Counted from the first letter of the stretch, positions 2,206-34,742 are shown. The stretch: DNA of 64,000 nt from Parcubacteria group bacterium (GCA_041661275.1 JBAZUU010000005.1:72-64071); one strand, 5' to 3'. Notes: generated by a model not told the origin, from the sequence alone. Numbers and translations: made by a program.

Positions 2206-2355
2206 CTCGCCAAAGGCGAGATAAAACTTTTTGAAAATTTATGGTTCAAAAATTTTCATTTCCAATTTTTGGAGCAAAATAATCCCGCTTTGCGGGATTG
2301 AGGCGATTTTTCCTCTCCCTCACCGAACATTCTTTTGCCACGCCAAAATAAAAAT

Positions 2356-3957
2356 ATGAATACATTATCACAACCAACAAGATATTTTCTCTACATCAGA
2401 AAAAGCACGGATGAGGAAGACCGCCAAGTCTTGAGTTTGGAAGCGCAACTGACGGAACTAAAAGAATTTGCCGAAAAGGAAAGTTTAGAAATAATCGAAA
2501 CATTCGTCGAAAAGAAAACAGCCAAAACTCCAGGACGAGAAATTTTTAACAGTATGCTTCAAAAAATCGAAAGCGGTCTTCCTCATCCGATAGGAATTTT
2601 AGCGTGGCATCCGGACAGATTGTCCAGAAATTCAATTGACGGAGGAAAAATGATTTATCTTTTGGACACCGGAAAATTATCCGACCTGAAATTTCCCACT
2701 TTTGCATTCGAAAACAATCCCAGTGGTAAATTTTTCTTGGCTATCGGACTCTCAAACGCCAAATATTATGTGGACAATCTGTCCGAGAATGTTCGGCGAG
2801 GGAACCGCGCCAAGTTGCGGCGAGGCGAATGGCCCGGACAAAAACCTTTCGGGTATATTTATGATCACCGATTAAGGAATATTGTCCCTGACCCTAAAAA
2901 AGCGAAAATAGTGAAAACTATATACGAAGAATTTACCACCGGCAAACATACCTTAAAATCAATTTCAAATCGCCTCGCCGCGCTTGGCAGCGGTAAAATG
3001 AAATCTAATGGCGCTATTGAACATTTTCTGACCGCTAAACTTTACATGGGCATAATGCCCTGGAAAGGAGAAGTTTATGAAGGCAAATTCCAACCGCTCA
3101 TCTCAAAGCAATTGTTTGCCAAAGTGCAGGAAACATTGAAAAATCGGCGCAAGCCGAGAAAAAGCAAAAAGCGTCATAATTTCCCGTTCGTCGGACTTTT
3201 TCGCTGTTCCTGCGGAGCCATGATAACGGCTCAATTTGCCAAAGGTCATGGCGGAATATACCGCTATTATCGTTGCACTAGAAAACATGGGGCTTGCGCC
3301 GAAAAATATATTCAGGAGCCAGAATTGAAACAGAAGATTGTCGAAAAAATGCAAACAATTGCTTTGCCCTCTGAATGGATAGAAAATATGAAAATTAAAT
3401 TGGAGCAAGAAGAAAAATCACAAGCTCAATTAGCAGGAGCTTTCGCAGAAGCGAATAAAAAGAAAATTATTTTGATTCAGAAAAAATTAGACAAACTATT
3501 GGAAGGATATCTGGATAATCTCATTGACGAAGAAAGCTATCGACGCAAAAAAGAAGAATTGGTGCAACAAAAAACTGCCCTCAAGAATGAGCAGGAGTCG
3601 CTTCTGCGAAAGCAGATGAGCGGGTGGATCGAACCAATGAGAGAATTCATAAACGACCTTAAATACGCAGGAAAAATCGCCTCGGAGCAATCTCTGGAAG
3701 AGATTGCTAATTTTGCGCAAAAAATTGGAACGAACCGCCTGATTTCCGAAAAAACCGCCTCCTGGAATTTCGCTCCGCCTTTTGATTTCGCCTCTGAAAT
3801 CCTGGCGCGCCGCGCTTTGGCGCGCGGCGCGCACTCTTCGGCTTTGACGACCGAAAAATCGCGAAGTCCTCTGTGGTGCGCCCTGCAGGAGTCGAACCTG
3901 CAACCCCTTGGTCCGAAGCCAAGTACTCTATCCATTGAGCTAAGGGCGCATCATTAA
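2356..3957 (+). CDS. Large serine recombinase (resolvase/invertase N-domain, recombinase domain, zinc-ribbon)
   Basis: YIRKSTDEEDRQVLSLEAQ catalytic-Ser motif, RLSRN and a C-terminal CSCG...CTRKHGAC ribbon. ATG at 2356 (track starts at TTG 2335). The 3' end runs through inverted repeat B and over tRNA-Arg on the opposite strand. Confidence 0.85.
   Translation: MNTLSQPTRYFLYIRKSTDEEDRQVLSLEAQLTELKEFAEKESLEIIETFVEKKTAKTPGREIFNSMLQKIESGLPHPIGILAWHPDRLSRNSIDGGKMIYLLDTGKLSDLKFPTFAFENNPSGKFFLAIGLSNAKYYVDNLSENVRRGNRAKLRRGEWPGQKPFGYIYDHRLRNIVPDPKKAKIVKTIYEEFTTGKHTLKSISNRLAALGSGKMKSNGAIEHFLTAKLYMGIMPWKGEVYEGKFQPLISKQLFAKVQETLKNRRKPRKSKKRHNFPFVGLFRCSCGAMITAQFAKGHGGIYRYYRCTRKHGACAEKYIQEPELKQKIVEKMQTIALPSEWIENMKIKLEQEEKSQAQLAGAFAEANKKKIILIQKKLDKLLEGYLDNLIDEESYRRKKEELVQQKTALKNEQESLLRKQMSGWIEPMREFINDLKYAGKIASEQSLEEIANFAQKIGTNRLISEKTASWNFAPPFDFASEILARRALARGAHSSALTTEKSRSPLWCALQESNLQPLGPKPSTLSIELRAHH
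3735..3888. repeat. Right copy of the ~154-bp inverted repeat
   Basis: See 2052-2205. Overlaps the recombinase 3' end and the last ~10 nt of tRNA-Arg(TCG). Confidence 0.8.
3877..3950 (-). tRNA. tRNA-Arg (anticodon TCG)
   Basis: Cloverleaf read by eye: acceptor GCGCCCT/AGGGCGC, T-loop GGTTCGACTCC, anticodon loop CTTCGGA. Confidence 0.85.
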
Positions 3958-3969
3958 ATTTAAAATCCG

Positions 3970-4042
3970 GGCGGTCACTGGGAGTCGGACCCAGATTCTC
4001 GGTACCACAAACCGATGTCTTAACCGTTAGACGATGACCGCC
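3970..4042 (-). tRNA. tRNA-His (GTG) with G-1
   Basis: G-1 + GCGGTCA acceptor, anticodon loop TTGTGGT, T-loop GGGTCCGACTCCC. Confidence 0.85.
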
Positions 4043-4289: not shown

Positions 4290-4359
4290 TCTCCCACCAC
4301 TTTTTTACTTGCATTAAGAGTGTAAAAAATATTAAAAACAAAAAAAGTGGTGGGGGATA
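4290..4359. repeat. Long palindromic element / bidirectional terminator (tctCCCACCACTTTTTT...AAAAAGTGGTGGGGGAT)
   Basis: ~17-bp perfect arms immediately after the VanW stop codon. Paralogous to 6365-6429. Confidence 0.6.
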
Positions 4360-4361
4360 AA

Positions 4362-5666
4362 TTATATTCCATGCTGTTTTTTATAGGTGGACCATTCTTT
4401 GTCCGACCAGCCGTTGGGTTTTTGAGTGAGGACATCAGAAGTTGTTCCGGGATGGGGATATTTGGAAGGGGAGTCATAGTTACTGTTAAAAGTATCATCG
4501 ATGATTATCTTTCCATTGGTGTCCGTAACTTTTTGCCCGAGCGTCGTTTTCATCGAGCCGTCAGGATTGCGTTCAATTATTTTGGGACCATTAAGCTCTA
4601 CCTTTCTTCCATCATTGGTTCCATAAAAATCGAATATCAGTTCTGTTCCCTCAATTCTGGTCTGGATCAAAATATATTTCGGAGTATTATTCATAAACCG
4701 CAAATCCGGACGGGGGACATAAACTGTCGCGTCCATCCCTTGCGGATTATAATATTGCACCGGATAAGCGTGATTGCGTCTGGCGGTAATTTTCAAGCCG
4801 GAGTTGAGCGCCGCACGGAAAGCAGTAGTGGAAACCTGACAAATTCCACCGCCAAATTCCGGTTCCGTTTTATCTTTTTTAATAACGAGCTCTGGCAGAT
4901 AGCCATGGTCGCCGTCCACTTCCCCCAGAACTTTCACAAAAGAAAAATCTTCCCCGGGTTTTATCAGGACACCGTTAAACCGGTTGGTAGCGACATTGAT
5001 ATTGAAAATTCTGTTTTTAGGCGAGCCTCGAAAATTAGAACGGCCCTCCCCGATAAGATCGCTCACCCCCAGCGCGTCAATTGAATCAACATTGGAAATT
5101 TTCGGGTCGGATTCTTTATATGGAAGATTTAGCGGTTTTTTAAAATCCGCTCCGATAATATAATTCATCAGCATTTCAGCGCTTTTTGCCTCGTCCAGTT
5201 CGATTCCCTTGGTTCCGGAAGAAAATTCTGACACTTTTCCAGCCGCTACCTTTAGCTTGGCATCCTCCGGATTTTTATTAACCTTCAGCGCCAGCGCCGC
5301 GACATAGCTGCCAATTGAATCTTCGTTTATTCTTACGACTGATTTTTTTTGAATATGAATTTTTTTTGACGGTTCAAATGAGAGAGCGCAAAAGAGCGAT
5401 TTTTTGTATCCGCAAAAATTAGAATTTTCTATTTCTGAAAAATATTGCGGATTATAAACCAGCGACGTGGATTCTTCCAGCCATTTTTTTATCTCATCTT
5501 TGGTGGCGGTATAAGTTGTGTCTTTTACGGAAATACTGACAGCATTAGGCAGGCTGGCAGTTACGGAAACCATCGAACCGGATACATCTTTAGCTTGGGT
5601 AGATAATGGCAATGTCAAAAGACATACCAACAAAACAAGGAATTTGTGAAATCCTTTTCCAATCAT
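4362..5666 (-). CDS. VanW-family secreted protein
   Basis: Signal peptide. GGGICQVSTTAFRAALNSGLKITARRNHAYPVQYY is a VanW-domain signature. Confidence 0.75.
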   Translation of the reverse strand: MIGKGFHKFLVLLVCLLTLPLSTQAKDVSGSMVSVTASLPNAVSISVKDTTYTATKDEIKKWLEESTSLVYNPQYFSEIENSNFCGYKKSLFCALSFEPSKKIHIQKKSVVRINEDSIGSYVAALALKVNKNPEDAKLKVAAGKVSEFSSGTKGIELDEAKSAEMLMNYIIGADFKKPLNLPYKESDPKISNVDSIDALGVSDLIGEGRSNFRGSPKNRIFNINVATNRFNGVLIKPGEDFSFVKVLGEVDGDHGYLPELVIKKDKTEPEFGGGICQVSTTAFRAALNSGLKITARRNHAYPVQYYNPQGMDATVYVPRPDLRFMNNTPKYILIQTRIEGTELIFDFYGTNDGRKVELNGPKIIERNPDGSMKTTLGQKVTDTNGKIIIDDTFNSNYDSPSKYPHPGTTSDVLTQKPNGWSDKEWSTYKKQHGI

Positions 5667-5790
5667 ATATTAAGAATATACCAGAAAGTTGACTTAATCA
5701 ACCGGCATTAATATGATCAAAAAAAGAAAACCTTTTTCTGATTTTCTCTTTCTAAAGCTAATTTCTTTTCTAATAAACCAGTCTCCAAAT

Positions 5791-6351
5791 CTAGAAACCT
5801 CTGACTTGGATTTTTTTTGTCCTGGTATTATTGGCTTTCGGCATGCGGATGGTCAAAATTCCGTTTTTCATCGACGCTTCCACTTTGTCAGGGACAATAT
5901 CAATCGGCAAAATGACTGATCGGGAAAAGCCACCCCAATAACATTCCTGGTAATAATAATTTTCGCCGGTGATCTGTTCATCCTGTTTTCTTTCCCCGCG
6001 AATAGTGATCATATCGTTATTGATGCTGACATCCAGATCTTCCGGCTTCACTCCGGCAATGGTAGACTTTATGACGATATCACTGTCGGTCTGATAGACA
6101 TCGATTGTCAATTGTCCCTCAGAATCGTCGGAAGAACGGGAGAAATTTTCGTCCCGGACATTGACATTTGGTCTCACTGGCGGAGAAGCGTAAACTTCCG
6201 TTTCTCTTTCATCCACGTATAAATTTCTGGAAGGTTCCAGACGGTTAGTGTCTATGGGCTGTTCAGTTTCATAAATATCATTTTCCATATCTCTGGCTCC
6301 GGTTAATTTTTCCAAAAATGATCTTTTGACTTTTACCATAATATTTTTCAA
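5791..6351 (-). CDS. Hsp20/alpha-crystallin small heat-shock protein
   Basis: LTIDVYQTD...VKPEDLDVSINNDMITIRGERK...GGFSRSVILP...KVEASMKNGILTIRMPK alpha-crystallin domain. Confidence 0.8.
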   Translation of the reverse strand: MKNIMVKVKRSFLEKLTGARDMENDIYETEQPIDTNRLEPSRNLYVDERETEVYASPPVRPNVNVRDENFSRSSDDSEGQLTIDVYQTDSDIVIKSTIAGVKPEDLDVSINNDMITIRGERKQDEQITGENYYYQECYWGGFSRSVILPIDIVPDKVEASMKNGILTIRMPKANNTRTKKIQVRGF

Positions 6352-6364
6352 AATTTAATGTTTA

Positions 6365-6429
6365 TCCCCCACCACTTTTTCACTTTTTTCTTTCGCACCA
6401 AAGGTGCGAGTGAAAAAGTGGTGGGGGAT
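6365..6429. repeat. Palindromic element (ATCCCCCACCACTTTTTCAC...GTGAAAAAGTGGTGGGGGAT)
   Basis: 20-bp perfect outer arms plus inner tcgcacc/ggtgcga pair. Lies between the stop of 6489-6959 and the hsp20 start. Confidence 0.6.
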
Positions 6430-15068: not shown

Positions 15069-17354
15069 CTATTCCAAATGAATCTTTTCCGAAAACTTTC
15101 GAAGGGCATCTCGCAGAGCGGGGTGCTTTTTTAATTGAGGATCATCTTTTAGGATAGTCTGCGCTTCTTCGCGGGCGAATTTGATGAGTTTTACATTGGT
15201 CAGGTTTTCCATAGCGATATCAGGAAGACCCGATTGGATGGTGCCGAAAAATTGTCCCGGGCCGCGCAGTTCCAGATCGATTTTGGATATTTCAAATCCG
15301 TCATTGGTTTTTTCAAGGGCTTTGAGGCGTTTTAGGGGGTCAGGTACCTTTTTTGTAGCAAAAAAGGTACCTGACCCCTTTCCTGCGCCAGTGAAAAGAA
15401 AACAATATGATTGATGCTCGCTGCGGCCGACTCGTCCACGAAACTGATGGAGTTGGGAAAGACCAAATCGTTCGGCGTTTTCAATGATCATAATGGTCGC
15501 ATTGGGAACATCTATGCCTACTTCTACGACAGATGTAGAAACAAGAATTTGTGATTTTTTATCCTTAAAATCCCGCATTACTTCTTCTTTTTCTTTGGCC
15601 TTTAATCTGCCGTGCATGAGGCCAATTTGGAATTCCGGAAATATTTCCTGCAGTTTTTTATGTTCTTTGGTGGCGGCTTTTACTTCACTCAAAGCTTTCG
15701 ATTCTTCTACTAGTGGGAAAATGACAAAGATTTGCCGGCCAGAATTAATCTCGTTCCTTATAAAATTATAAACTTCTTTTCTGCCTGTTGGCGGAACAAT
15801 TTTTGTGCTGATTGGCTTTCTATTTTTGGGCATTTCGTCGAGAATTGATAAATCTAGTGAACCAAAGAAAGCGATAGCCAGACTTCTGGGAATAGGAGTG
15901 GCCGTCATAGTAAGTAAATGTGGAATAATTTTATTGTTCCCATCAGAAATGCTCATAGTTTCCTGCTGCAAAAACGCTCGTTGGGCGACGCCAAAACGGT
16001 GTTGTTCGTCGATGATAACCAAGGCTAAATTTTTGAATTTAACGTCTTTTTGGATCAATGCGTGCGTGCCAATAATGAGGTTGATTTTTCCAGATTTTAT
16101 ATTTTCTAATAATTTATTACGAGCAATGGTCTTAAAGTTTATCGAGTCTAATGGGGTGCCCTCTCCCGATCCAGCAGACTGGCTCGACCTCTCCCGAGGG
16201 GAGAGGTGGAAATTCTTTTCTTCCTCCTCTCCCTTTGGGAGAGGATGTCCGCCTAAATTTTTCTTAAAATTTTGGCGGACAGGAGAGGGTTCTTGGTTAA
16301 ATTCACAAATTATTTTATAAGAATTTGTCAGCAGTGCAACATTAAAATCATAATCCTTAAACAACTCACAAAAGCTTTCGAAATGTTGCCTGGCGAGGAC
16401 TTCAGTCGGTGCCATAATGGCCACTTGATAGCCAGAGGATATTGCCTGGAGCGTTGCCATAGCGGCCACTACTGTTTTTCCGCTCCCGACATCACCTTCC
16501 AAAAGCCGGTTCATCGGTTTCGGTTTTTCCAAATCTTTCAAAATTTCAAAGGAGGATTTTCTTTGGGCGTCGGTCAAAGTAAATGGCAATTTTTCCACAA
16601 AGTTTTTGATCAATTTTTCATCGAAATTAATGGCAATAGAATTATTATCTTCCCATTGATGTTTCACCTGCAAGGATTTCAGTTGAACCAGGAACATTTC
16701 CTGGAAAGCGAATCTTTTTTGGGCGCGGATCAGTTTTTCTTTGGAATCGGGAAAATGAATTTGAGTGATGGCAGTATAGATATCATAAAGATTAAATTTC
16801 TGTCTGATCTCATGTGGCAAAACATCCGGCAAATCTTTGGCGAGATATAAAAGCGGTTTCAGTTGCCAGCGAATCCATTTAGAACTGATGCCGGTTGTTT
16901 CAGAATACACCGGAACGAGTCGGCCAGTGTTAGTCGCGTCGCGTCCGGATTTTTCCCAAGCAGGACTAGTCATGGAAAAATGTTTTCCTTTTTGTTCCAA
17001 TTTTCCTGAAACGCGAATACCAGAGCCAATCGATAGTCCTTCCAAAATATATGGTTGATTGAACCAAGCGAGTTTGAGTGGTGTGCCATTTTTGTCGGTA
17101 ATCGTCACTTCTTGCACCGTCATTCTTCTTCTGAAAATCCGGTTATTTCTGGCTTTTTCTACTTTGCCTTCGACTGTTATGACAGCGCCGATGTATTTTT
17201 CATCAATTTCCACTATGCGTGAAAAATCATCATAACGGAAGGGGAAATACAGAAGCAGATCCTGCACAGTCAAAAGCCCCAATTTTTCCAGAACTTTGAC
17301 ATATTTGGGGGTGATTTTAGGGATGGACTTTAATAGTGTATCTAGATTGACCAT
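15069..17354 (-). CDS. recG: ATP-dependent DNA helicase RecG
   Basis: Wedge/N-domain, GDVGSGKT Walker A, DEQHRFG, QLHQFRGRVGR helicase motifs. Carries an ~45-aa in-frame insert from a repeat element. Confidence 0.9.
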   Translation of the reverse strand: MVNLDTLLKSIPKITPKYVKVLEKLGLLTVQDLLLYFPFRYDDFSRIVEIDEKYIGAVITVEGKVEKARNNRIFRRRMTVQEVTITDKNGTPLKLAWFNQPYILEGLSIGSGIRVSGKLEQKGKHFSMTSPAWEKSGRDATNTGRLVPVYSETTGISSKWIRWQLKPLLYLAKDLPDVLPHEIRQKFNLYDIYTAITQIHFPDSKEKLIRAQKRFAFQEMFLVQLKSLQVKHQWEDNNSIAINFDEKLIKNFVEKLPFTLTDAQRKSSFEILKDLEKPKPMNRLLEGDVGSGKTVVAAMATLQAISSGYQVAIMAPTEVLARQHFESFCELFKDYDFNVALLTNSYKIICEFNQEPSPVRQNFKKNLGGHPLPKGEEEEKNFHLSPRERSSQSAGSGEGTPLDSINFKTIARNKLLENIKSGKINLIIGTHALIQKDVKFKNLALVIIDEQHRFGVAQRAFLQQETMSISDGNNKIIPHLLTMTATPIPRSLAIAFFGSLDLSILDEMPKNRKPISTKIVPPTGRKEVYNFIRNEINSGRQIFVIFPLVEESKALSEVKAATKEHKKLQEIFPEFQIGLMHGRLKAKEKEEVMRDFKDKKSQILVSTSVVEVGIDVPNATIMIIENAERFGLSQLHQFRGRVGRSEHQSYCFLFTGAGKGSGTFFATKKVPDPLKRLKALEKTNDGFEISKIDLELRGPGQFFGTIQSGLPDIAMENLTNVKLIKFAREEAQTILKDDPQLKKHPALRDALRKFSEKIHLE
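16158..16290. repeat. In-frame RPE-like palindromic insert within recG
   Basis: GGGAGAGGATGTCCGCCTAAATTTTTCTTAAAATTTTGGCGGACAGGAGAGGG is near-identical to the reverse complement of the 46441-46510 element. Additional cctctccc/gggagagg hairpins. Encodes ...HPLPKGEEEEKNFHLSPRERSSQSAGSGEGTPLD. Confidence 0.55.
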
Positions 17355-17400
17355 ATAGATAGTATAAAGTACTATGAATAAAGTACAAATAAGTTTTATT

Positions 17401-17473
17401 GTCCTTGTAGCTCAGTGGATAGAGCGTCTGGTTGCGGTCCAGAAGGTCGGAGGTTCGATTCCTCCCAAGGACA
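17401..17473 (+). tRNA. tRNA-Arg (anticodon read as GCG)
   Basis: GTCCTTGTAGCTCAGTGGATAGAGCG, stem TCTGG/CCAGA, loop TTGCGGT, GGTTCGATTCC. Confidence 0.7.
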
Positions 17474-17766
17474 CTAAATTTTAAAACGCGCCTGAGATCG
17501 GACGCGTTTTTTGAGTTTATTTTTGAAAAATCGATTATTATCGACGTGGCCAGGGGCAGGAATCATACGCGCTTCTTTCCTCTGGCGGTTTCCAGACAGA
17601 GGCCGATGCTCTAAAAATAAGTATAATATTTTCAGGATCAATTTTAAAGCATACCAATTTTTCGCCATAGCGATGCTTAGAGCGGGTGGCGTGTCGGTAA
17701 TAGCCTTTGTTTATGGATAAGTTATCTCGCCAGCACATTTTTCCCTCCTCATTTTTAGGAACTGAG

Positions 17767-18366
17767 TCATATCTTCAAAAGTCTCTCCATTGTTTCGACC
17801 AATCCTGGTTCTTTTTTTTCTTCCGGCAAAAATTCGAGAAGTATCTGGCGGATGTGGACAGGATCTTCTTCGTGGATGGGAATGTGGATATAGGGCATAA
17901 TACCGCTTTTGGTATGGAGGCAAGCCGATTTCAAACCTTCCGGTTCATAGAAAATCCAAAAAGATTCCAAATTGTCAAATTCGTAAATTTCACGTCTCGC
18001 AACGACGCCTTCGGTAGTGATCATAAAATCAATGATGCGCGGTTCCTGATTGATGTGGAGATAGCCGACTATTCCGATAAGGATAAAAGTGATAGCCATG
18101 ACAGGGCTGTTGGAATAGAGCGCCCAAGCGACAATGCCGACAAGAATCAGGGTGACAACGACATACCACTTTTTGTCGCGCTCAAAAACCTCATATTCCG
18201 GCGCTCGCCAGTGAGCAAGAACGTCAGTCGAGTGTTCAGAAATCTGAAAATCATGAGGAGATTCCAAGAGTTCCTCTTCTTGCGCTTCCGGTTTTGGGGC
18301 GAGAAAGTTATCTATCTGCCTTTCCTTTTTTACTTTTCTTCTTGGGTCGTCGTGTTCGATATACAT
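17767..18366 (-). CDS. Hypothetical two-TM membrane protein
   Basis: Long ORF with central hydrophobic segments. No family recognised. Confidence 0.5.
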   Translation of the reverse strand: MYIEHDDPRRKVKKERQIDNFLAPKPEAQEEELLESPHDFQISEHSTDVLAHWRAPEYEVFERDKKWYVVVTLILVGIVAWALYSNSPVMAITFILIGIVGYLHINQEPRIIDFMITTEGVVARREIYEFDNLESFWIFYEPEGLKSACLHTKSGIMPYIHIPIHEEDPVHIRQILLEFLPEEKKEPGLVETMERLLKI

Positions 18367-18582
18367 ACCCGGTAATAGAATTTTGACTCTGATGTTATTT
18401 AAATCAAATTTCTCGATATAATACTTGGAATTATTTTAATATTTGCCCGTCAGTAATATTTTTTTGGCCAAAGGCCAGTCAAAATTTCACTACCGGGCAT
18501 AATGAAATATTAGCACAACCATTCAGGTTTACAAAATCAGGATTTGGATATAGTATTGGTTAATTGTATAATTAGATTAACT

Positions 18583-18673
18583 GGAGAAGTCGCATAGCCT
18601 GGCTTAGTGCGGCAGATTGCTAATCTGCTATACGGGTTAAACCGTATCGAGGGTTCGAATCCCTCCTTCTCCG
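18583..18673 (+). tRNA. tRNA-Ser (GCT), class II long variable arm
   Basis: GGAGAAGTCGCATAGCCTGGC..., loop TGCTAAT, variable arm, GGTTCGAATCC. Confidence 0.85.
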
Positions 18674-18685
18674 CTTCCAATACTG

Positions 18686-18939
18686 GGAAGCGTGGCCGAG
18701 TGGCTGAAGGCGACAGCTTGTCCCGCACCATTTTTCATTTAAAGTCGAGTCTTTTTAAGTTTTTTATTGGAAGAGTGCCCGAGTGGTTTAAGGGAACAGT
18801 CTTGAAAACTGTCGTATCCGAAAGGGTACCGTGAGTTCGAATCTCACCTCTTCCGCAAAAAATGAAAAATGGTGCGGGATCGCGAAAAACTGCAGTACCG
18901 GAAACGGTACCGAAGGTTCGAATCCTTCCGCTTCCGCCA
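18686..18939 (+). other. Split tRNA-Ser-like gene interrupted by a ~160-nt insert
   Basis: 5' part 18686-18720: acceptor GGAAGCG plus Ser-type D-arm. 3' part 18880-18939: class-II variable arm GTACCGGAAACGGTAC, T-arm, CGCTTCC-G-CCA. The insert is bounded by the 10-bp inverted repeat TCCCGCACCA/TGGTGCGGGA and contains tRNA-Ser(TGA). Confidence 0.5.
18769..18855 (+). tRNA. tRNA-Ser (TGA), nested inside the split tRNA-like gene
   Basis: GGAAGAGTGCCCGAGTGGTTTAAGGGA, loop CTTGAAA, variable arm, GAGTTCGAATCTCAC, acceptor CTCTTCC. Confidence 0.85.
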
Positions 18940-18973
18940 AGCAGATATCACAACAAAGAAAGGAGGGCGTGTT

Positions 18974-19642
18974 ATGAAGTTCTTTGCAATATTAGCACTT
19001 TGTTTTTTTATCTTTCTCCAGAAACCGGCGCTCTCCCAGGAAGTGGAGGATCCCGGAAAATTTATGGAGAGGGTATTCGGAAACGGGTCAGAGCTCATAA
19101 ACAAAGAGCCGACCCCTGAAGGCCGTCGAGAGGTGGTGCGGAGGATAGTTCTCAAGTTTTTTGATGTTCCCGGACTTGGATTGAACGCGCTCGGGAGACT
19201 GGGAAAAAAATTGCTGCCCGAGCAACAAAAAGAATTTGAAATAAGGTTCCAAAAATATTTTTGCCTGTATAACGGGCCTCTGGACGAGCTGGCAAAATCG
19301 TCCAAAACCTGTTATGCGGATATGCCACGGAAAAGAAGCGAAGGACTCAACGGCACTGTCAATATCAATGGCAAGCTGCATCTTTCCGGCTGGGAAAAAC
19401 CGTTTGATGTCTCATACAATATGTTATGGAAAGGAGACGGCTGGTTGGTTTTGGACAGCACTATTGAAGGACGGAGCAGTAAGGACAAATTCAGGACGGA
19501 ATTCAACGATCTTATCACCGCTGATCCCGGAAAATCATATGAGGCGGTGATCGGGTATATTGAGTGCCGACTGAACGGAATGGGAGAGCCGCAATGCAAA
19601 AAAAGAGAATCGCATATTGCGACAAGGGGAGGAGATAATTAA
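18974..19642 (+). CDS. Secreted hypothetical protein (possible MlaC-like fold)
   Basis: RBS aaaggaggg; signal peptide MKFFAILALCFFIFLQKPALS. The track ORF starts upstream at 18869, inside the tRNA. Confidence 0.55.
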   Translation: MKFFAILALCFFIFLQKPALSQEVEDPGKFMERVFGNGSELINKEPTPEGRREVVRRIVLKFFDVPGLGLNALGRLGKKLLPEQQKEFEIRFQKYFCLYNGPLDELAKSSKTCYADMPRKRSEGLNGTVNINGKLHLSGWEKPFDVSYNMLWKGDGWLVLDSTIEGRSSKDKFRTEFNDLITADPGKSYEAVIGYIECRLNGMGEPQCKKRESHIATRGGDN

Positions 19643-19735
19643 ACAGTTTCAATGGGCGCCCGAATGGACGCCTTGTTTTATTGCTATAATTTCTTATTGA
19701 TATTAAAATTGTTTTAGAAGTTGTTAATAGTTTTT

Positions 19736-19803
19736 CCCTCTCCTGTCAGCCATAAATTTTCAGAAAAATTTAGGCTGACATCCTCTCCCTTCGGGAGAGG
19801 AGA
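19736..19803. repeat. RPE-like palindromic element copy A (CCCTCTCCTGTCAGCC...GGCTGACATCCTCTCCC..GGGAGAGGAG)
   Basis: Two nested hairpins. 19 nt upstream of tRNA-Pro(GGG). Confidence 0.7.
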
Positions 19804-19822
19804 ATAAGGAAGGTAGTTTTCG

Positions 19823-19893
19823 CGGAGCGTAGTATAGTGGTAGTACGCAAGGCTGGGGGTCTTGTAGTCCGAGTTCGATTCTCGGCGCTCCGA
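19823..19893 (+). tRNA. tRNA-Pro (GGG)
   Basis: CGGAGCG acceptor, loop CTGGGGG, GAGTTCGATTCTC. Confidence 0.8.
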
Positions 19894-19906
19894 CTAATAA
19901 AAAAAT

Positions 19907-20323
19907 ATGTCAAAAAATATCGAAATAATTTCAAGAGCGTTCATTGTAAAAGAGGGAGAGGTCTTGCTGTGTAAGGTTAAATCCAAAGATAATTATTTTT
20001 TCCCTGGTGGGCATGTGGAATACGGAGAAAAAGTTGAGGATGCTTTGAAAAGAGAGTTGAAAGAAGAAATTGGCAAAGAATTGGAAAATATAAATTTTAT
20101 CGGAATTTGCGAAAATACTTTTCAGTTTATGGGAGAACATCAGGAAATCAATCTGGTTTTTGAAGCGGAAATTAATGATGATAAATTAGAAGTTTTAGAA
20201 GACCATATGGAATTTGGTTGGTTTTCTTTTAATAGAATTGAATCAATGAATGTTTTGCCAGAAAAATTAAAAAAGGAATTTTTGAAGTGGATAAAAAATA
20301 AGAAGATTTTTTATATAGTTTAA
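19907..20323 (+). CDS. NUDIX hydrolase
   Basis: Nudix box GGHVEYGEKVEDALKRELKEEIG. Confidence 0.8.
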   Translation: MSKNIEIISRAFIVKEGEVLLCKVKSKDNYFFPGGHVEYGEKVEDALKRELKEEIGKELENINFIGICENTFQFMGEHQEINLVFEAEINDDKLEVLEDHMEFGWFSFNRIESMNVLPEKLKKEFLKWIKNKKIFYIV

Positions 20324-20428
20324 CCCTCTCCTGTCAGCCATAAATTTTCAGAAAAATTTAGGCTGACATCCTCTCCCGCTCCGCCAGCCGGCGGACGGGC
20401 GAGGAGGATTTGAAAGAACTACTCATAG
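20324..20428. repeat. RPE-like palindromic element copy B with extended GC hairpin and GGAGGATTTGAAAG tail
   Basis: First 54 nt identical to copy A. Immediately upstream of tRNA-Pro(CGG). Confidence 0.7.
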
Positions 20429-20500
20429 CGGGCTGTGGTATAGTGGTATTACGCACGATTCGGGTTCGTGTAATCCGAGTTCGATTCTCGGCAGCCCGAC
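20429..20500 (+). tRNA. tRNA-Pro (CGG)
   Basis: CGGGCTG acceptor, loop TTCGGGT, GAGTTCGATTCTC. Confidence 0.8.
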
Positions 20501-20511
20501 AAACAAAAAAA

Positions 20512-20536
20512 GACTCTCGCCAGGAGAGCTTTTTGT
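20512..20536. terminator. Bidirectional rho-independent terminator
   Basis: gactctcgccaggagagc hairpin flanked by A-run and T-run, between tRNA-Pro and the convergent minus-strand ORF. Confidence 0.5.
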
Positions 20537-20539
20537 TTG

Positions 20540-20818
20540 TTAGCTAATTTTTTCCATCCACGTCCTTCCCGCTGATTCCCGTTTCATTCTTTCTTTTGTC
20601 CGTTCAGAAAAAAATTTTGGTTCTTTTTTTTCAGTCAGATTTTTCAACTCTTTCTTCGCGTCTCTTTCGAAAGAAGGATAAGAAGATTCTTCCAGAAAAT
20701 GTTCTCGGGCGGCTTTTCTAAATGATCCGCTAATCTGTCCATCGGTATACGGCTCATTTCCAAAAGCTTCTTTAGCGATCTCTTTTGTCCGTTCTAATAT
20801 TTTTTCAAAATCAGCCAT
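20540..20818 (-). CDS. Hypothetical small charged protein
   Basis: ORF only. Confidence 0.4.
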   Translation of the reverse strand: MADFEKILERTKEIAKEAFGNEPYTDGQISGSFRKAAREHFLEESSYPSFERDAKKELKNLTEKKEPKFFSERTKERMKRESAGRTWMEKIS

Positions 20819-20867
20819 AGGTTTTTTTGATAATTTAATTGTATTTCATAATTTAGTAGTCCGCAAA

Positions 20868-21614
20868 TTAATTTATTTCCTGTCTGGCGATGACTATTCC
20901 AAAGACTTTTTTGGCGCCGTGTTTTTTCAGTATTTTTCCACATTCAAAAAGTGTCGAGCCGGTGGTAGCGATGTCGTCGACAAGAAGGATGTTGAGAGAG
21001 GTTAAGAAGGTGAATGTTTTCGAAAAAGAAAAAGCGTTTTGAAGGTTTTTTTGTCTTTCCTGATAGTTTTTTATCTTCATTTGCGGTTTAGTGTAATGAT
21101 TTCTGATGATAATATTGTCAGAAATGGGGATGCTCATGCCGGGCGTTAGATTTTCGCTTAGATAACGAGCCAAAAGTTCTGACTGGTTGAATCCGCGCCA
21201 ACGAAGACGTCGCCGGTGAAGCGGAACAGGAATAATGAGATCGGGAAGAGGAAGATTGTTTTTTAAGATGGATTTTATAATAATTTTCCCCAAAGGAACC
21301 GAAAGATCGCTGACAAAATTATATTTATAAGTGTGAACGAGTCGTGAAACAATATTTTCCCGATAAGAGGTAGCAATAATAAGATTATCCAGGGGAATAA
21401 TGGCGTTTTTTGACAGGAACTTTTCCTTGCAGTGTACGCATATCTGACCTGCGTCAGTAATAATCTTTTCGCAATAAGGACAAACTTGTTCTGATAATAA
21501 TTTTATCTTTTCCAGACATTTATGGCAGAACCACTCATCGTCTTTATTGCAAGATAAGCAAGAGATAGGAAAGAGGGTATCTAAAAATAATTTTTTAATG
21601 GAAGAAATAATCAT
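20868..21614 (-). CDS. comFC: ComF-family protein (ComFC-like phosphoribosyltransferase with N-terminal zinc finger)
   Basis: CLSC...CHKC...CPYC...CVHC zinc ribbon; PRTase motif LLVDDIATTGSTL. Confidence 0.75.
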   Translation of the reverse strand: MIISSIKKLFLDTLFPISCLSCNKDDEWFCHKCLEKIKLLSEQVCPYCEKIITDAGQICVHCKEKFLSKNAIIPLDNLIIATSYRENIVSRLVHTYKYNFVSDLSVPLGKIIIKSILKNNLPLPDLIIPVPLHRRRLRWRGFNQSELLARYLSENLTPGMSIPISDNIIIRNHYTKPQMKIKNYQERQKNLQNAFSFSKTFTFLTSLNILLVDDIATTGSTLFECGKILKKHGAKKVFGIVIARQEIN

Positions 21615-34629: not shown

Positions 34630-34742
34630 ATCCCGCACCAATTCCAATATGGCGCAGATATGGCCTAAGGAGTAGTGTGCGAATTCGCCTAACAGCTAAG
34701 TTTTAAATAAAAAATTAATATAACTGCGAATTGGTGCGGGAC
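34630..34742 (+). promoter_or_regulatory. Pilus-locus leader element copy 3
   Basis: ATCCCGCACCAATTCC...GAATTCGCCTAACAGC...GAATTGGTGCGGGAC. The track ORF start (TTG 34731) lies inside it. Confidence 0.55.

Follow-up and report, generated by a model that had tools for sequence, protein, structure and literature searches.

In Patescibacteria, group I introns occur at position 35/36 of tRNA genes (Nakagawa et al. 2026, PMC13011429). They are self-splicing ribozymes that were found with group I covariance models; the 5' exon ends with U, the intron ends with G, and the hosts are genes for Asn, Asp, Tyr, Met, Phe and Thr tRNAs (PMC13011429). Here, we describe a tRNA-Ser gene that is interrupted at the same position by an insert which itself carries a complete tRNA-Ser(UGA). 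This arrangement (hereafter, the nest) is found at 18686-18939 of a 64,000-nt stretch of DNA from a Parcubacteria group bacterium (GCA_041661275.1, JBAZUU010000005.1:72-64071), which was analyzed at its full length and is referred to as the window. The probable explanation is a mobile cassette that has hairpin ends and carries a rescue tRNA, with the outer gene as a decaying relic. Similar nests were detected in relatives. They share with the group I introns the phylum, the tRNA host and the 35/36 position, and in either case the interrupted gene escapes standard tRNA finders. The nests differ from group I introns because their inserts (105-165 nt) are mostly tRNA and lack a match to an intron family in Rfam, because the boundaries are G...A, because the hosts are genes for Ser, Pro and Arg tRNAs, and because these host genes decay.

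Multiple and noncanonical introns as well as split tRNAs are known from archaea (with intron transposition in Thermoproteales, and with Nanoarchaeum; reviewed in PMC4090602 and PMC3978253). Archaeal tRNA introns have a bulge-helix-bulge motif, which is the substrate of the EndA endonuclease, and reside in functional genes (PMC4090602, PMC3978253). The likeness to the nests consists in several inserts per gene (D-loop, anticodon loop, variable region, T-loop), in paired insert ends and in related inserts across tRNA genes. In contrast, the nests are bacterial, lack the motif, have decaying hosts and contain a nested backup tRNA.

Williams reportedly described in 2002 that phages and integrative conjugative elements which insert into tRNA genes bring along a copy of the tRNA segment that they displace. 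Such integrative elements are kilobases long and encode an integrase. Of the tRNA they duplicate no more than the 3' part, which forms a direct repeat, and they restore a single hybrid gene. The logic that we propose for the cassette is shared: a tRNA gene is targeted by mobile DNA, often in the anticodon loop or T-loop, and the host is spared by a replacement tRNA sequence. Unlike integrative elements, the 165-bp cassette lacks an open reading frame (ORF), contributes an entire tRNA gene that folds separately, and does not restore the old gene. Miniature inverted-repeat transposable elements (MITEs) and REP- or PATE-like elements are short and noncoding, with terminal inverted repeats that form one hairpin. 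Like these, the inserts have several copies per genome with conserved termini, some of them intergenic. They differ in that the cassette cargo is a tRNA matched to the target and in the position-specific sites within tRNA genes, while neither a target-site duplication nor a partner transposase was identified. The phage T4 endonuclease SegB promotes homing of itself and of flanking tRNA genes (PMC2330249). Nuclease genes in the same tRNA cluster, exon tracts that resemble co-conversion, and spread restricted to the homologous gene are reminiscent of such homing and of collaborative homing. However, there is no nuclease gene beside the window nest, and SegB does not move a nested replacement gene. 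In the literature on nested tRNAs or non-group-I inserts in bacterial tRNA genes, nothing comparable was found.

The outer tRNA-Ser(UGA) gene is split into two parts. The 5' part (18686..18720, + strand; GGAAGCG TG GCC GAGTGGCTGAA GGC G ACAG CTTG) consists of the acceptor strand, the D-arm, a damaged 5' strand of the anticodon stem and loop positions 32-35 (CTTG). The 3' part (18886..18939, + strand; AAA ACTGC A GTACCGGAAACGGTAC C GAAGG TTCGAAT CCTTC CGCTTCC G CCA) starts with loop positions 36-38 (AAA) and the 3' strand of the anticodon stem (ACTGC), continues with the variable arm (GTACCG-GAAA-CGGTAC) and the T-arm (GAAGG-TTCGAAT-CCTTC), and ends with the acceptor strand (CGCTTCC), the discriminator G and an encoded CCA. 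All sequence strings quoted in an earlier description of this DNA, made without database searches (the sequence-only reading), were recovered in place, and the perfect complementarity of the acceptor strands reported there was reproduced (7/7 pairs).

The insert (18721-18885, + strand) is 165 nt long; its limits were taken from a spliced alignment to an intact reference gene. The 5' arm of its terminal helix (18721..18740, + strand; TCCCGCACCATTTTTCATTT) has 20 nt and is 100% complementary to the 3' arm (18860..18879, + strand; AAATGAAAAATGGTGCGGGA). The bounding inverted repeat had been described as exact and 10 bp long; it is indeed exact, but the perfect terminal inverted repeat has 20 bp. 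The window contains 4 inverted repeats of at least 20 bp and 17 of at least 14 bp, compared to 0.0 and 0.3, respectively, per 64 kb in simulated sequence of the same composition. A chance origin of a perfect 20-bp inverted repeat is not expected. Downstream of the 5' arm follows an A+T-rich spacer of 28 nt (18741..18768, + strand), for which folding gave no significant structure of its own. It is followed by the complete inner tRNA-Ser(UGA) (18769..18856, + strand), for which the earlier assignment agrees with ARAGORN (tRNA-Ser(tga)) and with the Rfam tRNA model (57.8 bits). A tail of 6 nt (TCGCGA; 18880..18885, + strand) follows the 3' arm; TCGCGA or TCGAGA is also found in the Ser nests of three relatives (L066, L075 and L096). 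The non-tRNA portion of the insert is ~77 nt, and the 165 bp do not contain an ORF. The inner gene is presumed to be the cargo and the working gene. Relatives have standalone Ser(UGA) genes with 94-98% sequence identity to it. For the two outer halves the values are 81% and 76% (78% overall), so that inner and outer gene are paralogs. In the predicted fold of the whole unit (z = -5.8), the outer acceptor, T and variable arms, the long helix and the inner cloverleaf are all formed.

For comparison, 562 kb of related contigs with 245 called tRNAs were surveyed. The loci (designated by L numbers) came from a metagenome scan with a degenerate Ser 5'-half pattern (73 loci) and from protein look-ups. 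A block consisting of Arg(GCG), a gene coding for a 199-aa protein and Ser(UGA) is conserved in ~45 related contigs, which are therefore comparable as orthologous loci. In L092, where the neighboring protein is 67% identical, a gene of the type of the outer gene is uninterrupted and has a perfect anticodon arm (GCAGT-CTTGAAA-ACTGC). In L090 and L091 (neighboring protein 75% identical), an intact Ser(UGA) gene of the same type is located 13 nt after Ser(GCU). The insert is thus absent from L092, L090 and L091, which are the empty sites revealed by the comparison with relatives that had been recommended earlier. It is also absent from L063 at the orthologous locus (the 199-aa gene, followed by the Ser cluster). 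Because L092, L090 and L091 carry the same type of gene in intact form, the outer gene is the original resident Ser(UGA) gene. This assignment also identifies CTTG and AAA as loop positions 32-35 and 36-38, so that the insertion point is exactly between anticodon-loop positions 35 and 36. More distant relatives (59-62%) had suggested that the inner gene of the window is the vertically inherited resident; this was overturned by the closer L090-L092.

The sequence-only reading had recommended an inventory of the Ser isoacceptors (GGA, CGA), one of which the outer gene might have represented. It is, instead, a second UGA gene, with ~89% identity to standalone Ser(UGA) genes and CTTG|AAA as its original loop. 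When it was read as a CGA, GGA or UAA tRNA, also with shifted boundaries, only loops of 6 or 8 nt or a G33 were obtained. The outer gene differs from that of L092 at five positions. Three of these abut the insert (A26G, G27A and the loss of T31), and two of the three destroy pairs of the anticodon stem. The other two are in the D-loop (GGTTG>GGCTG) and at one base of the variable loop. Every in silico splice of the outer gene resulted in a 6- or 8-nt loop according to ARAGORN, with A.C mismatches, and none yielded a 7-nt loop on a 5-bp stem. The minimum-energy fold of the spliced product is devoid of an anticodon arm, whereas the L092 gene folds into a textbook cloverleaf. The earlier observation that a canonical anticodon arm cannot be built from the two halves thus holds, and the suspicion of a pseudogene is the best fit, given the damaged anticodon arm.

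Nine interrupted tRNA genes were found in total. These are Ser(UGA) genes in the window, L066/L077, L075 and L096, Pro genes in L018, L074 and L066 (two genes), and an Arg(GCG) gene in L063. In the spliced alignments of outer genes to intact references, the inner tRNAs were masked. All nine contain a nested complete tRNA for the same amino acid, which has the same anticodon in eight cases. The exception is L018, where the outer loop is CTTG|GGT; the intact ortholog in L074 is Pro(CGG), as is the inner gene of L018. The survey did not reveal any interrupted tRNA gene that lacks a nested tRNA. Six of the nine nests are located at position 35/36. Empty sites were also encountered elsewhere: L087 provides one for the outer Ser gene of L066, and L074 and L018 have reciprocal empty and filled sites for two Pro genes. 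When ARAGORN was run in intron mode (0-400 nt), an intron-containing tRNA was reported at none of the loci. A genome-collection scan with the outer 5' half retrieved ordinary tRNA-Ser only, mostly from Erwinia and related proteobacteria, together with one Ser(GCU) from Paceibacterota.

Some interrupted genes are more complex. On the - strand of L063 (~5665-6085), an Arg-like gene contains three helix-bounded inserts, located in the D-loop (with the nested tRNA-Arg), in the anticodon loop and in the T-loop. L066 carries Pro-like genes with up to five inserts at 2896-3215 and 3656-4010. These two paralogs share inserts of 44 nt and 19 nt, and one 3' half is located behind another.

Most inserts share the termini CCCC[G/C]CACCA(T)n...(A)nTGGTG[C/G]GGGG. 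A short tail follows the 3' arm, which is TGAA or TAAA in the Pro nests and in the T-loop insert of L063, and TCGCGA or TCGAGA in the Ser nests. The same ends occur without cargo (all three of the following elements are unstranded). A hairpin with the same terminal motif (4293..4354; CCCACCACTTTTTT...AAAAAAGTGGTGGG) adjoins a tRNA-Lys. A 66-nt hairpin with a perfect stem of 21 bp (6364..6429; ATCCCCCACCACTTTTTCACT) is intergenic. Also intergenic is an element of 111 nt with 14-bp arms (34631..34741; TCCCGCACCAATTC...GAATTGGTGCGGGA), inside of which no tRNA is recognizable. Including the nest, the 64-kb window thus contains four copies with conserved ends (4293, 6364, 18721 and 34631). Terminal inverted repeats and several dispersed copies with conserved ends are typical of MITEs. 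Among the options in the sequence-only reading, a tRNA gene disrupted by a tRNA-carrying MITE fits best: the gene is intact in L092, L090 and L091, and the insert has inverted repeats and belongs to a recurrent family. Cargo-less hairpins are also found inside already interrupted genes (at 10/11, in the D-loop, at 43/44 and in the T-loop). The arms are paired at 99% of their positions, and 7 of 14 positions show double-sided changes. Single-strand hairpin elements of the IS200/IS605 or REP type insert 3' of a fixed tetra- or pentanucleotide and make no duplication. In the present family, the helix follows CTTG in six inserts, in some of which CTTG is not part of a tRNA; the other flanks are ATGG, CTCG, CACG, TGGA and GTAG. 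A target-site duplication within the loop (TCTTG / TCGCG) was considered but fits the Ser nests only loosely and fails for the Pro nests. We also dropped a link of the arm motif CCCGCACCA to tRNA 3' ends (acceptor strand plus ACCA), as most tRNAs here lack an encoded CCA. A large serine recombinase (2335-3957) has its own 152-bp repeats, with no evident link to the hairpin ends. When viral collections were scanned for the arm 14-mer, at least 120 chance matches were obtained, none of them with a partner arm, and there was no sign of a phage vector. The recG coding region contains a perfect 20-bp palindrome with a 3-nt loop (15336-15378; GGGGTCAGGTACCTTTTTTG...), which may be an in-frame hairpin insertion.

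The condition of the outer genes varies, from intact in some nests to the loss of half the gene in others. In L063, the T-loop is CACG and the D-stem is poor. The outer Pro genes of L066 have up to five inserts, A.C mismatches, acceptor halves that do not match, and a second 3' half behind the first. The 3' half is lost in L075, while L096 has lost the T-arm and the 3' acceptor strand. In L221-L223, no outer gene is present, and 10 nt of an L096-type arm are kept directly upstream of a Ser(UGA) gene that is now standalone. Such a decay series is expected of outer genes that have become dispensable once the inner gene has assumed their role.

The exon tracts flanking the inserts are mosaic. In the window, the resident gene is of the GGAAGCG type and the cargo of the GGAAGAG type; in L075 this is reversed, with homologous arms and tails. 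The outer 5' exon of the Ser gene in L066 is identical to the intact gene of L087 in 37/37 positions. Its 3' exon is of the GGAAGAG type for the first 22 nt and then returns to the L087 type. The 9 nt that adjoin the insert in the window agree with the flank in L075 rather than with that in L092. We interpret these tracts as the usual gene-conversion footprint of recombinational transfer. Co-conversion driven by a homing endonuclease would leave such tracts, as would other routes of gene conversion. Between tRNA-Ser(GCU) and tRNA-Ser(UGA), L087 codes for an HNH protein (172 aa; locus coordinates 363-881) and L092 for a GIY-YIG protein (86 aa; locus coordinates 1859-2119). Judged from their sequences, these look like free-standing homing endonucleases in the tRNA cluster. 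In both loci, the Ser(UGA) gene is uninterrupted. A Pfam scan of the ORFs neighboring the window nest did not reveal an adjoining nuclease gene.

We propose the following scenario. A 165-bp cassette, consisting of two 20-bp arms, tRNA-Ser(UGA) and the 6-nt tail, would have inserted into the resident tRNA-Ser(UGA) gene at 35/36. The insertion would be tolerated since the tRNA gene that it destroys is made up for by the working copy in the cassette. The interrupted outer gene would then be a relic that decays, with the anticodon stem already broken in the window. The inner tRNA is probably transcribed from the resident promoter of the tRNA operon. Upstream of the Ser(GCT)/Ser(UGA) cluster, a promoter-like site (TGGATA-16-TATAAT, 18545..18572, + strand) matches the consensus in 10 of 12 positions; this site is the likely origin of transcription for the whole nest. 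It is the only such site, and none was found on the + strand inside the insert. Pairing of the arms probably isolates the inner tRNA from the 80%-identical outer halves, with which it might otherwise mispair, and the paired arms may offer a double-stranded processing site. In Moranbacteria-like Patescibacteria, a family of such cassettes would interrupt Ser, Pro and Arg tRNA genes, the cargo always being of the same kind as the target. The cassettes may move from one lineage to another through recombination with the homologous tRNA gene, which would leave co-converted tracts in the exons. Entry via such recombination would also account for the constant match between host and cargo.

Several observations weigh against this scenario. 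Target-site duplications are absent from the flanks CTTG / TCGCGA-AAA, CTTG / TGAA-GGT and ATGG / TAAA-GGT. No transposase or recombinase could be tied to the element, and neither a nuclease nor a transposase is encoded beside the nest or the other hairpins of the window, where Pfam gave only MlaC, HSP20, PrsW, a pilin-like protein and VanW. For these reasons, mobility at the DNA level is deduced from the distribution only. The measure of arm covariation is partly circular, since the copies were found through their complementarity. Sampling started from a Ser(UGA) sequence pattern and one neighboring protein, which biases the frequencies. Most of the extra inserts occupy unpaired cloverleaf positions, which is suggestive of selection or of a process guided by RNA or single-stranded DNA structure. 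Upon insert removal, the outer gene of L018 is intact or nearly so, and that of L074 is near-intact with one C31.A39 mismatch. L066 has five inserts, yet its exon pieces are well preserved. Such a state of L018, L074 and L066 is also expected of functional spliced genes. Finally, as mentioned above, position 35/36 is an established intron site in this phylum, Patescibacteria being intron-rich with a preference for 35/36 (PMC13011429).

The near-intact outer genes of L018 and L074, together with the lack of a target-site duplication and the preference of extra inserts for unpaired positions, are reasons to retain true introns as an alternative for at least some of the inserts. The inserts might represent a new class of bacterial tRNA introns, with the helix-bounded insert being removed by protein machinery (e.g., a double-strand-specific nuclease and an RNA ligase). 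The outer tRNA would then be functional and the nested tRNA a by-product, similar to the situation in multi-intron tRNA genes of Thermoproteales. Removal of the inserts gives a Pro(UGG) in L018 and a Ser(UGA) in L066, both of which ARAGORN accepts as normal tRNAs. In L074, an alignment of the outer gene to an intact Pro(GGG) reference shows one mismatch. The sites (35/36, D-loop, 25/26, 43/44, T-loop) are mostly unpaired, the arms stay complementary as their sequence changes, and the identical 44-nt and 19-nt inserts in the two L066 Pro genes look as if a gene that already carried them had been duplicated and retained. Nevertheless, we consider this explanation unlikely. After any splice, the window outer gene does not form an anticodon arm, in L075 and L096 the outer gene is half-destroyed and in L063 it is aberrant, and identical hairpins occur in intergenic DNA. 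A backup tRNA of the same isoacceptor, present in every interrupted gene, would be needless for a harmless intron. The boundaries are G35|C/T...A|N36 and not U...G as in group I introns, there is no match to an Rfam intron family and no bulge-helix-bulge motif at the junctions, and such machinery is not known from bacteria. Somewhat more doubtful is a variant in which the paired arms define the cut sites and the outer tRNAs are functional at least in lineages resembling L018 and L074. One transcript would then give rise to two tRNAs, as a bacterial counterpart of the archaeal multi-intron genes.

Both described types of introns were considered separately and rejected. The location in the anticodon loop at 35/36 is that of group I introns. 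When 17000-21000 was scanned with Rfam at a permissive cutoff (E up to 1), only tRNA-related matches and no ribozyme core (P3-P9) emerged. The boundary nucleotides are also wrong, being ...CTTG|TCCC...TCGCGA|AAA in the window rather than a U ending the 5' exon and a G ending the intron. For L018, the Pro loop dictates the boundaries (G35|C...A|G36). An archaeal-type intron, which has two 3-nt bulges on either side of a 4-bp helix at its junctions, does not fit the window, L018 or L066, where the helix starts right after position 35 and an unpaired tail of 4-6 nt precedes position 36, without symmetric bulges. A scan of eleven ORFs of the window, which covers 64 kb of the genome, revealed neither EndA nor a ligase. 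An intron harboring a tRNA, which the sequence-only reading had listed first, is thus disfavored by the missing group I core, the boundary nucleotides, the missing bulge-helix-bulge motif and the decay of the outer genes in L075 and L096.

The outer halves and the helix might have been co-opted as a scaffold for processing or expression of the inner tRNA, or as a non-decoding tRNA-like RNA. This would account for the perfect acceptor, D, T and variable arms of the window outer gene despite its broken anticodon arm, and for the perfect 20-bp helix. The same T31 deletion in three lineages could mean a selected state. We regard co-option as improbable, since perfect arms are equally expected from a recent insertion, since L075 and L096 have lost the outer 3' halves while the inner gene stays, and since most relatives have the same tRNA without any scaffold.

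A local rearrangement scar that does not involve a mobile element, arising by duplication, deletion or palindrome slippage among tandem paralogous tRNAs, is slightly less probable still. Inner and outer genes are paralogs with 78% identity, and the tRNA cluster is a hot spot of rearrangement (L089 and L090 differ downstream of Ser(GCT), and L066 has chimeric halves). On the other hand, a tandem duplication does not produce terminal inverted repeats, and the insert is precisely at 35/36 in six independent nests. The inner gene is of another lineage type than the resident, with the types swapped in L075. The same helix termini and tails are shared by three tRNA families and by several organisms, and recur in intergenic copies. 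A one-off recombination scar, as had been suggested earlier, is excluded by the recurrence of the helix ends in Ser, Pro and Arg genes of other organisms. An element with a tRNA-targeting integrase was also rejected, as the insert has no ORF and the inner gene is a complete diverged paralog (78% identical) rather than a repeat of the 3' segment. An assembly artefact, i.e., a chimeric join of reads from two similar tRNA-Ser genes, has a negligible probability: tRNA paralogs can mislead assemblers and Logan contigs break inside the inner tRNA, but a contig from another assembly (L001) is 100% identical to the window over 12.6 kb, the right-hand junction is exactly repeated in a separate Logan assembly (L227, run SRR6484324), and homologous nests occur in unrelated samples and metagenome-assembled genomes (L066/L077, L075, L096, L018, L074, L063).

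The arrangement, in which a tRNA gene is broken and replaced, recurs in Ser, Pro and Arg tRNA genes of related bacteria and has apparently not been described before. If our interpretation as a mobile cassette with a rescue tRNA is correct, a selfish element of 100-170 bp without a gene of its own destroys an essential tRNA gene and replaces it at once. The host would then depend on the invader, while the original gene rots. This would explain the turnover and horizontal movement of tRNA genes in the ultra-small genomes of Patescibacteria, the different types of the same tRNA at one locus in neighboring lineages, and the half-genes that litter patescibacterial tRNA clusters. If, instead, the inserts are spliced, they represent a new kind of bacterial RNA processing. 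For genome annotation, it is relevant that tRNA finders report the inner gene only and that the outer halves may be mistaken for introns or missing isoacceptors.

The window codes for RecG, PilM, ComF-like, NUDIX and MlaC proteins. Homologs of the neighboring 199-aa protein are named Candidatus Moranbacteria, Patescibacteria group. Based on this gene content and on these names, the window is placed in the candidate phyla radiation. The upstream neighbor of the nest is tRNA-Ser(GCU) (18583..18674, + strand; called by ARAGORN, Rfam 53.2 bits), and the order Ser(GCT) then Ser(TGA) is also found in relatives. L089 and L090/L091 have an identical 211-aa neighbor protein. Ser(UGA) is 13 nt from Ser(GCU) in L090/L091 and is absent in L089, and the variable arm of Ser(GCU) differs between them. 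This points to a strain-level rearrangement in the tRNA cluster.

The two tRNA-Pro genes of the window have counterparts that are nested or interrupted in L066, L018 and L074. Just upstream of both is a 67-nt repeat (19724-19789 and 20311-20377; 95.5% identical), which holds a hairpin (GTCAGCC...GGCTGAC).

The large serine recombinase ORF mentioned above (2335-3957, + strand) has Resolvase, Recombinase and Zn_ribbon_recom domains. It is flanked by its 152-bp inverted repeats (2053-2204 and 3730-3881; 99.3% identical), one of which begins exactly at the 3' end of tRNA-Arg(TCG) (...GCACCA). From its sequence, the unit appears to be a separate mobile or invertible element next to the tRNA cluster.

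A tRNA-like element at 60591-60661 (- strand) matches both ends of the Rfam transfer-messenger RNA (tmRNA) model (34.5 bits, which is below the gathering score of 47; E = 4.4e-12) and has a G3:U70 acceptor. It has 28 nt in place of the mRNA-like domain of ~328 nt. A perfect 17-bp inverted repeat joins its interior to a region ~110 nt downstream, where the partner arm is located at 60498-60514. The element may be an unusual tmRNA (two-piece or rearranged) or a remnant.

The usual anticodon of bacterial tRNA-Arg is ACG. In the tRNA-Arg of the window (17401-17474) and of its relatives, the anticodon is GCG throughout the clade.

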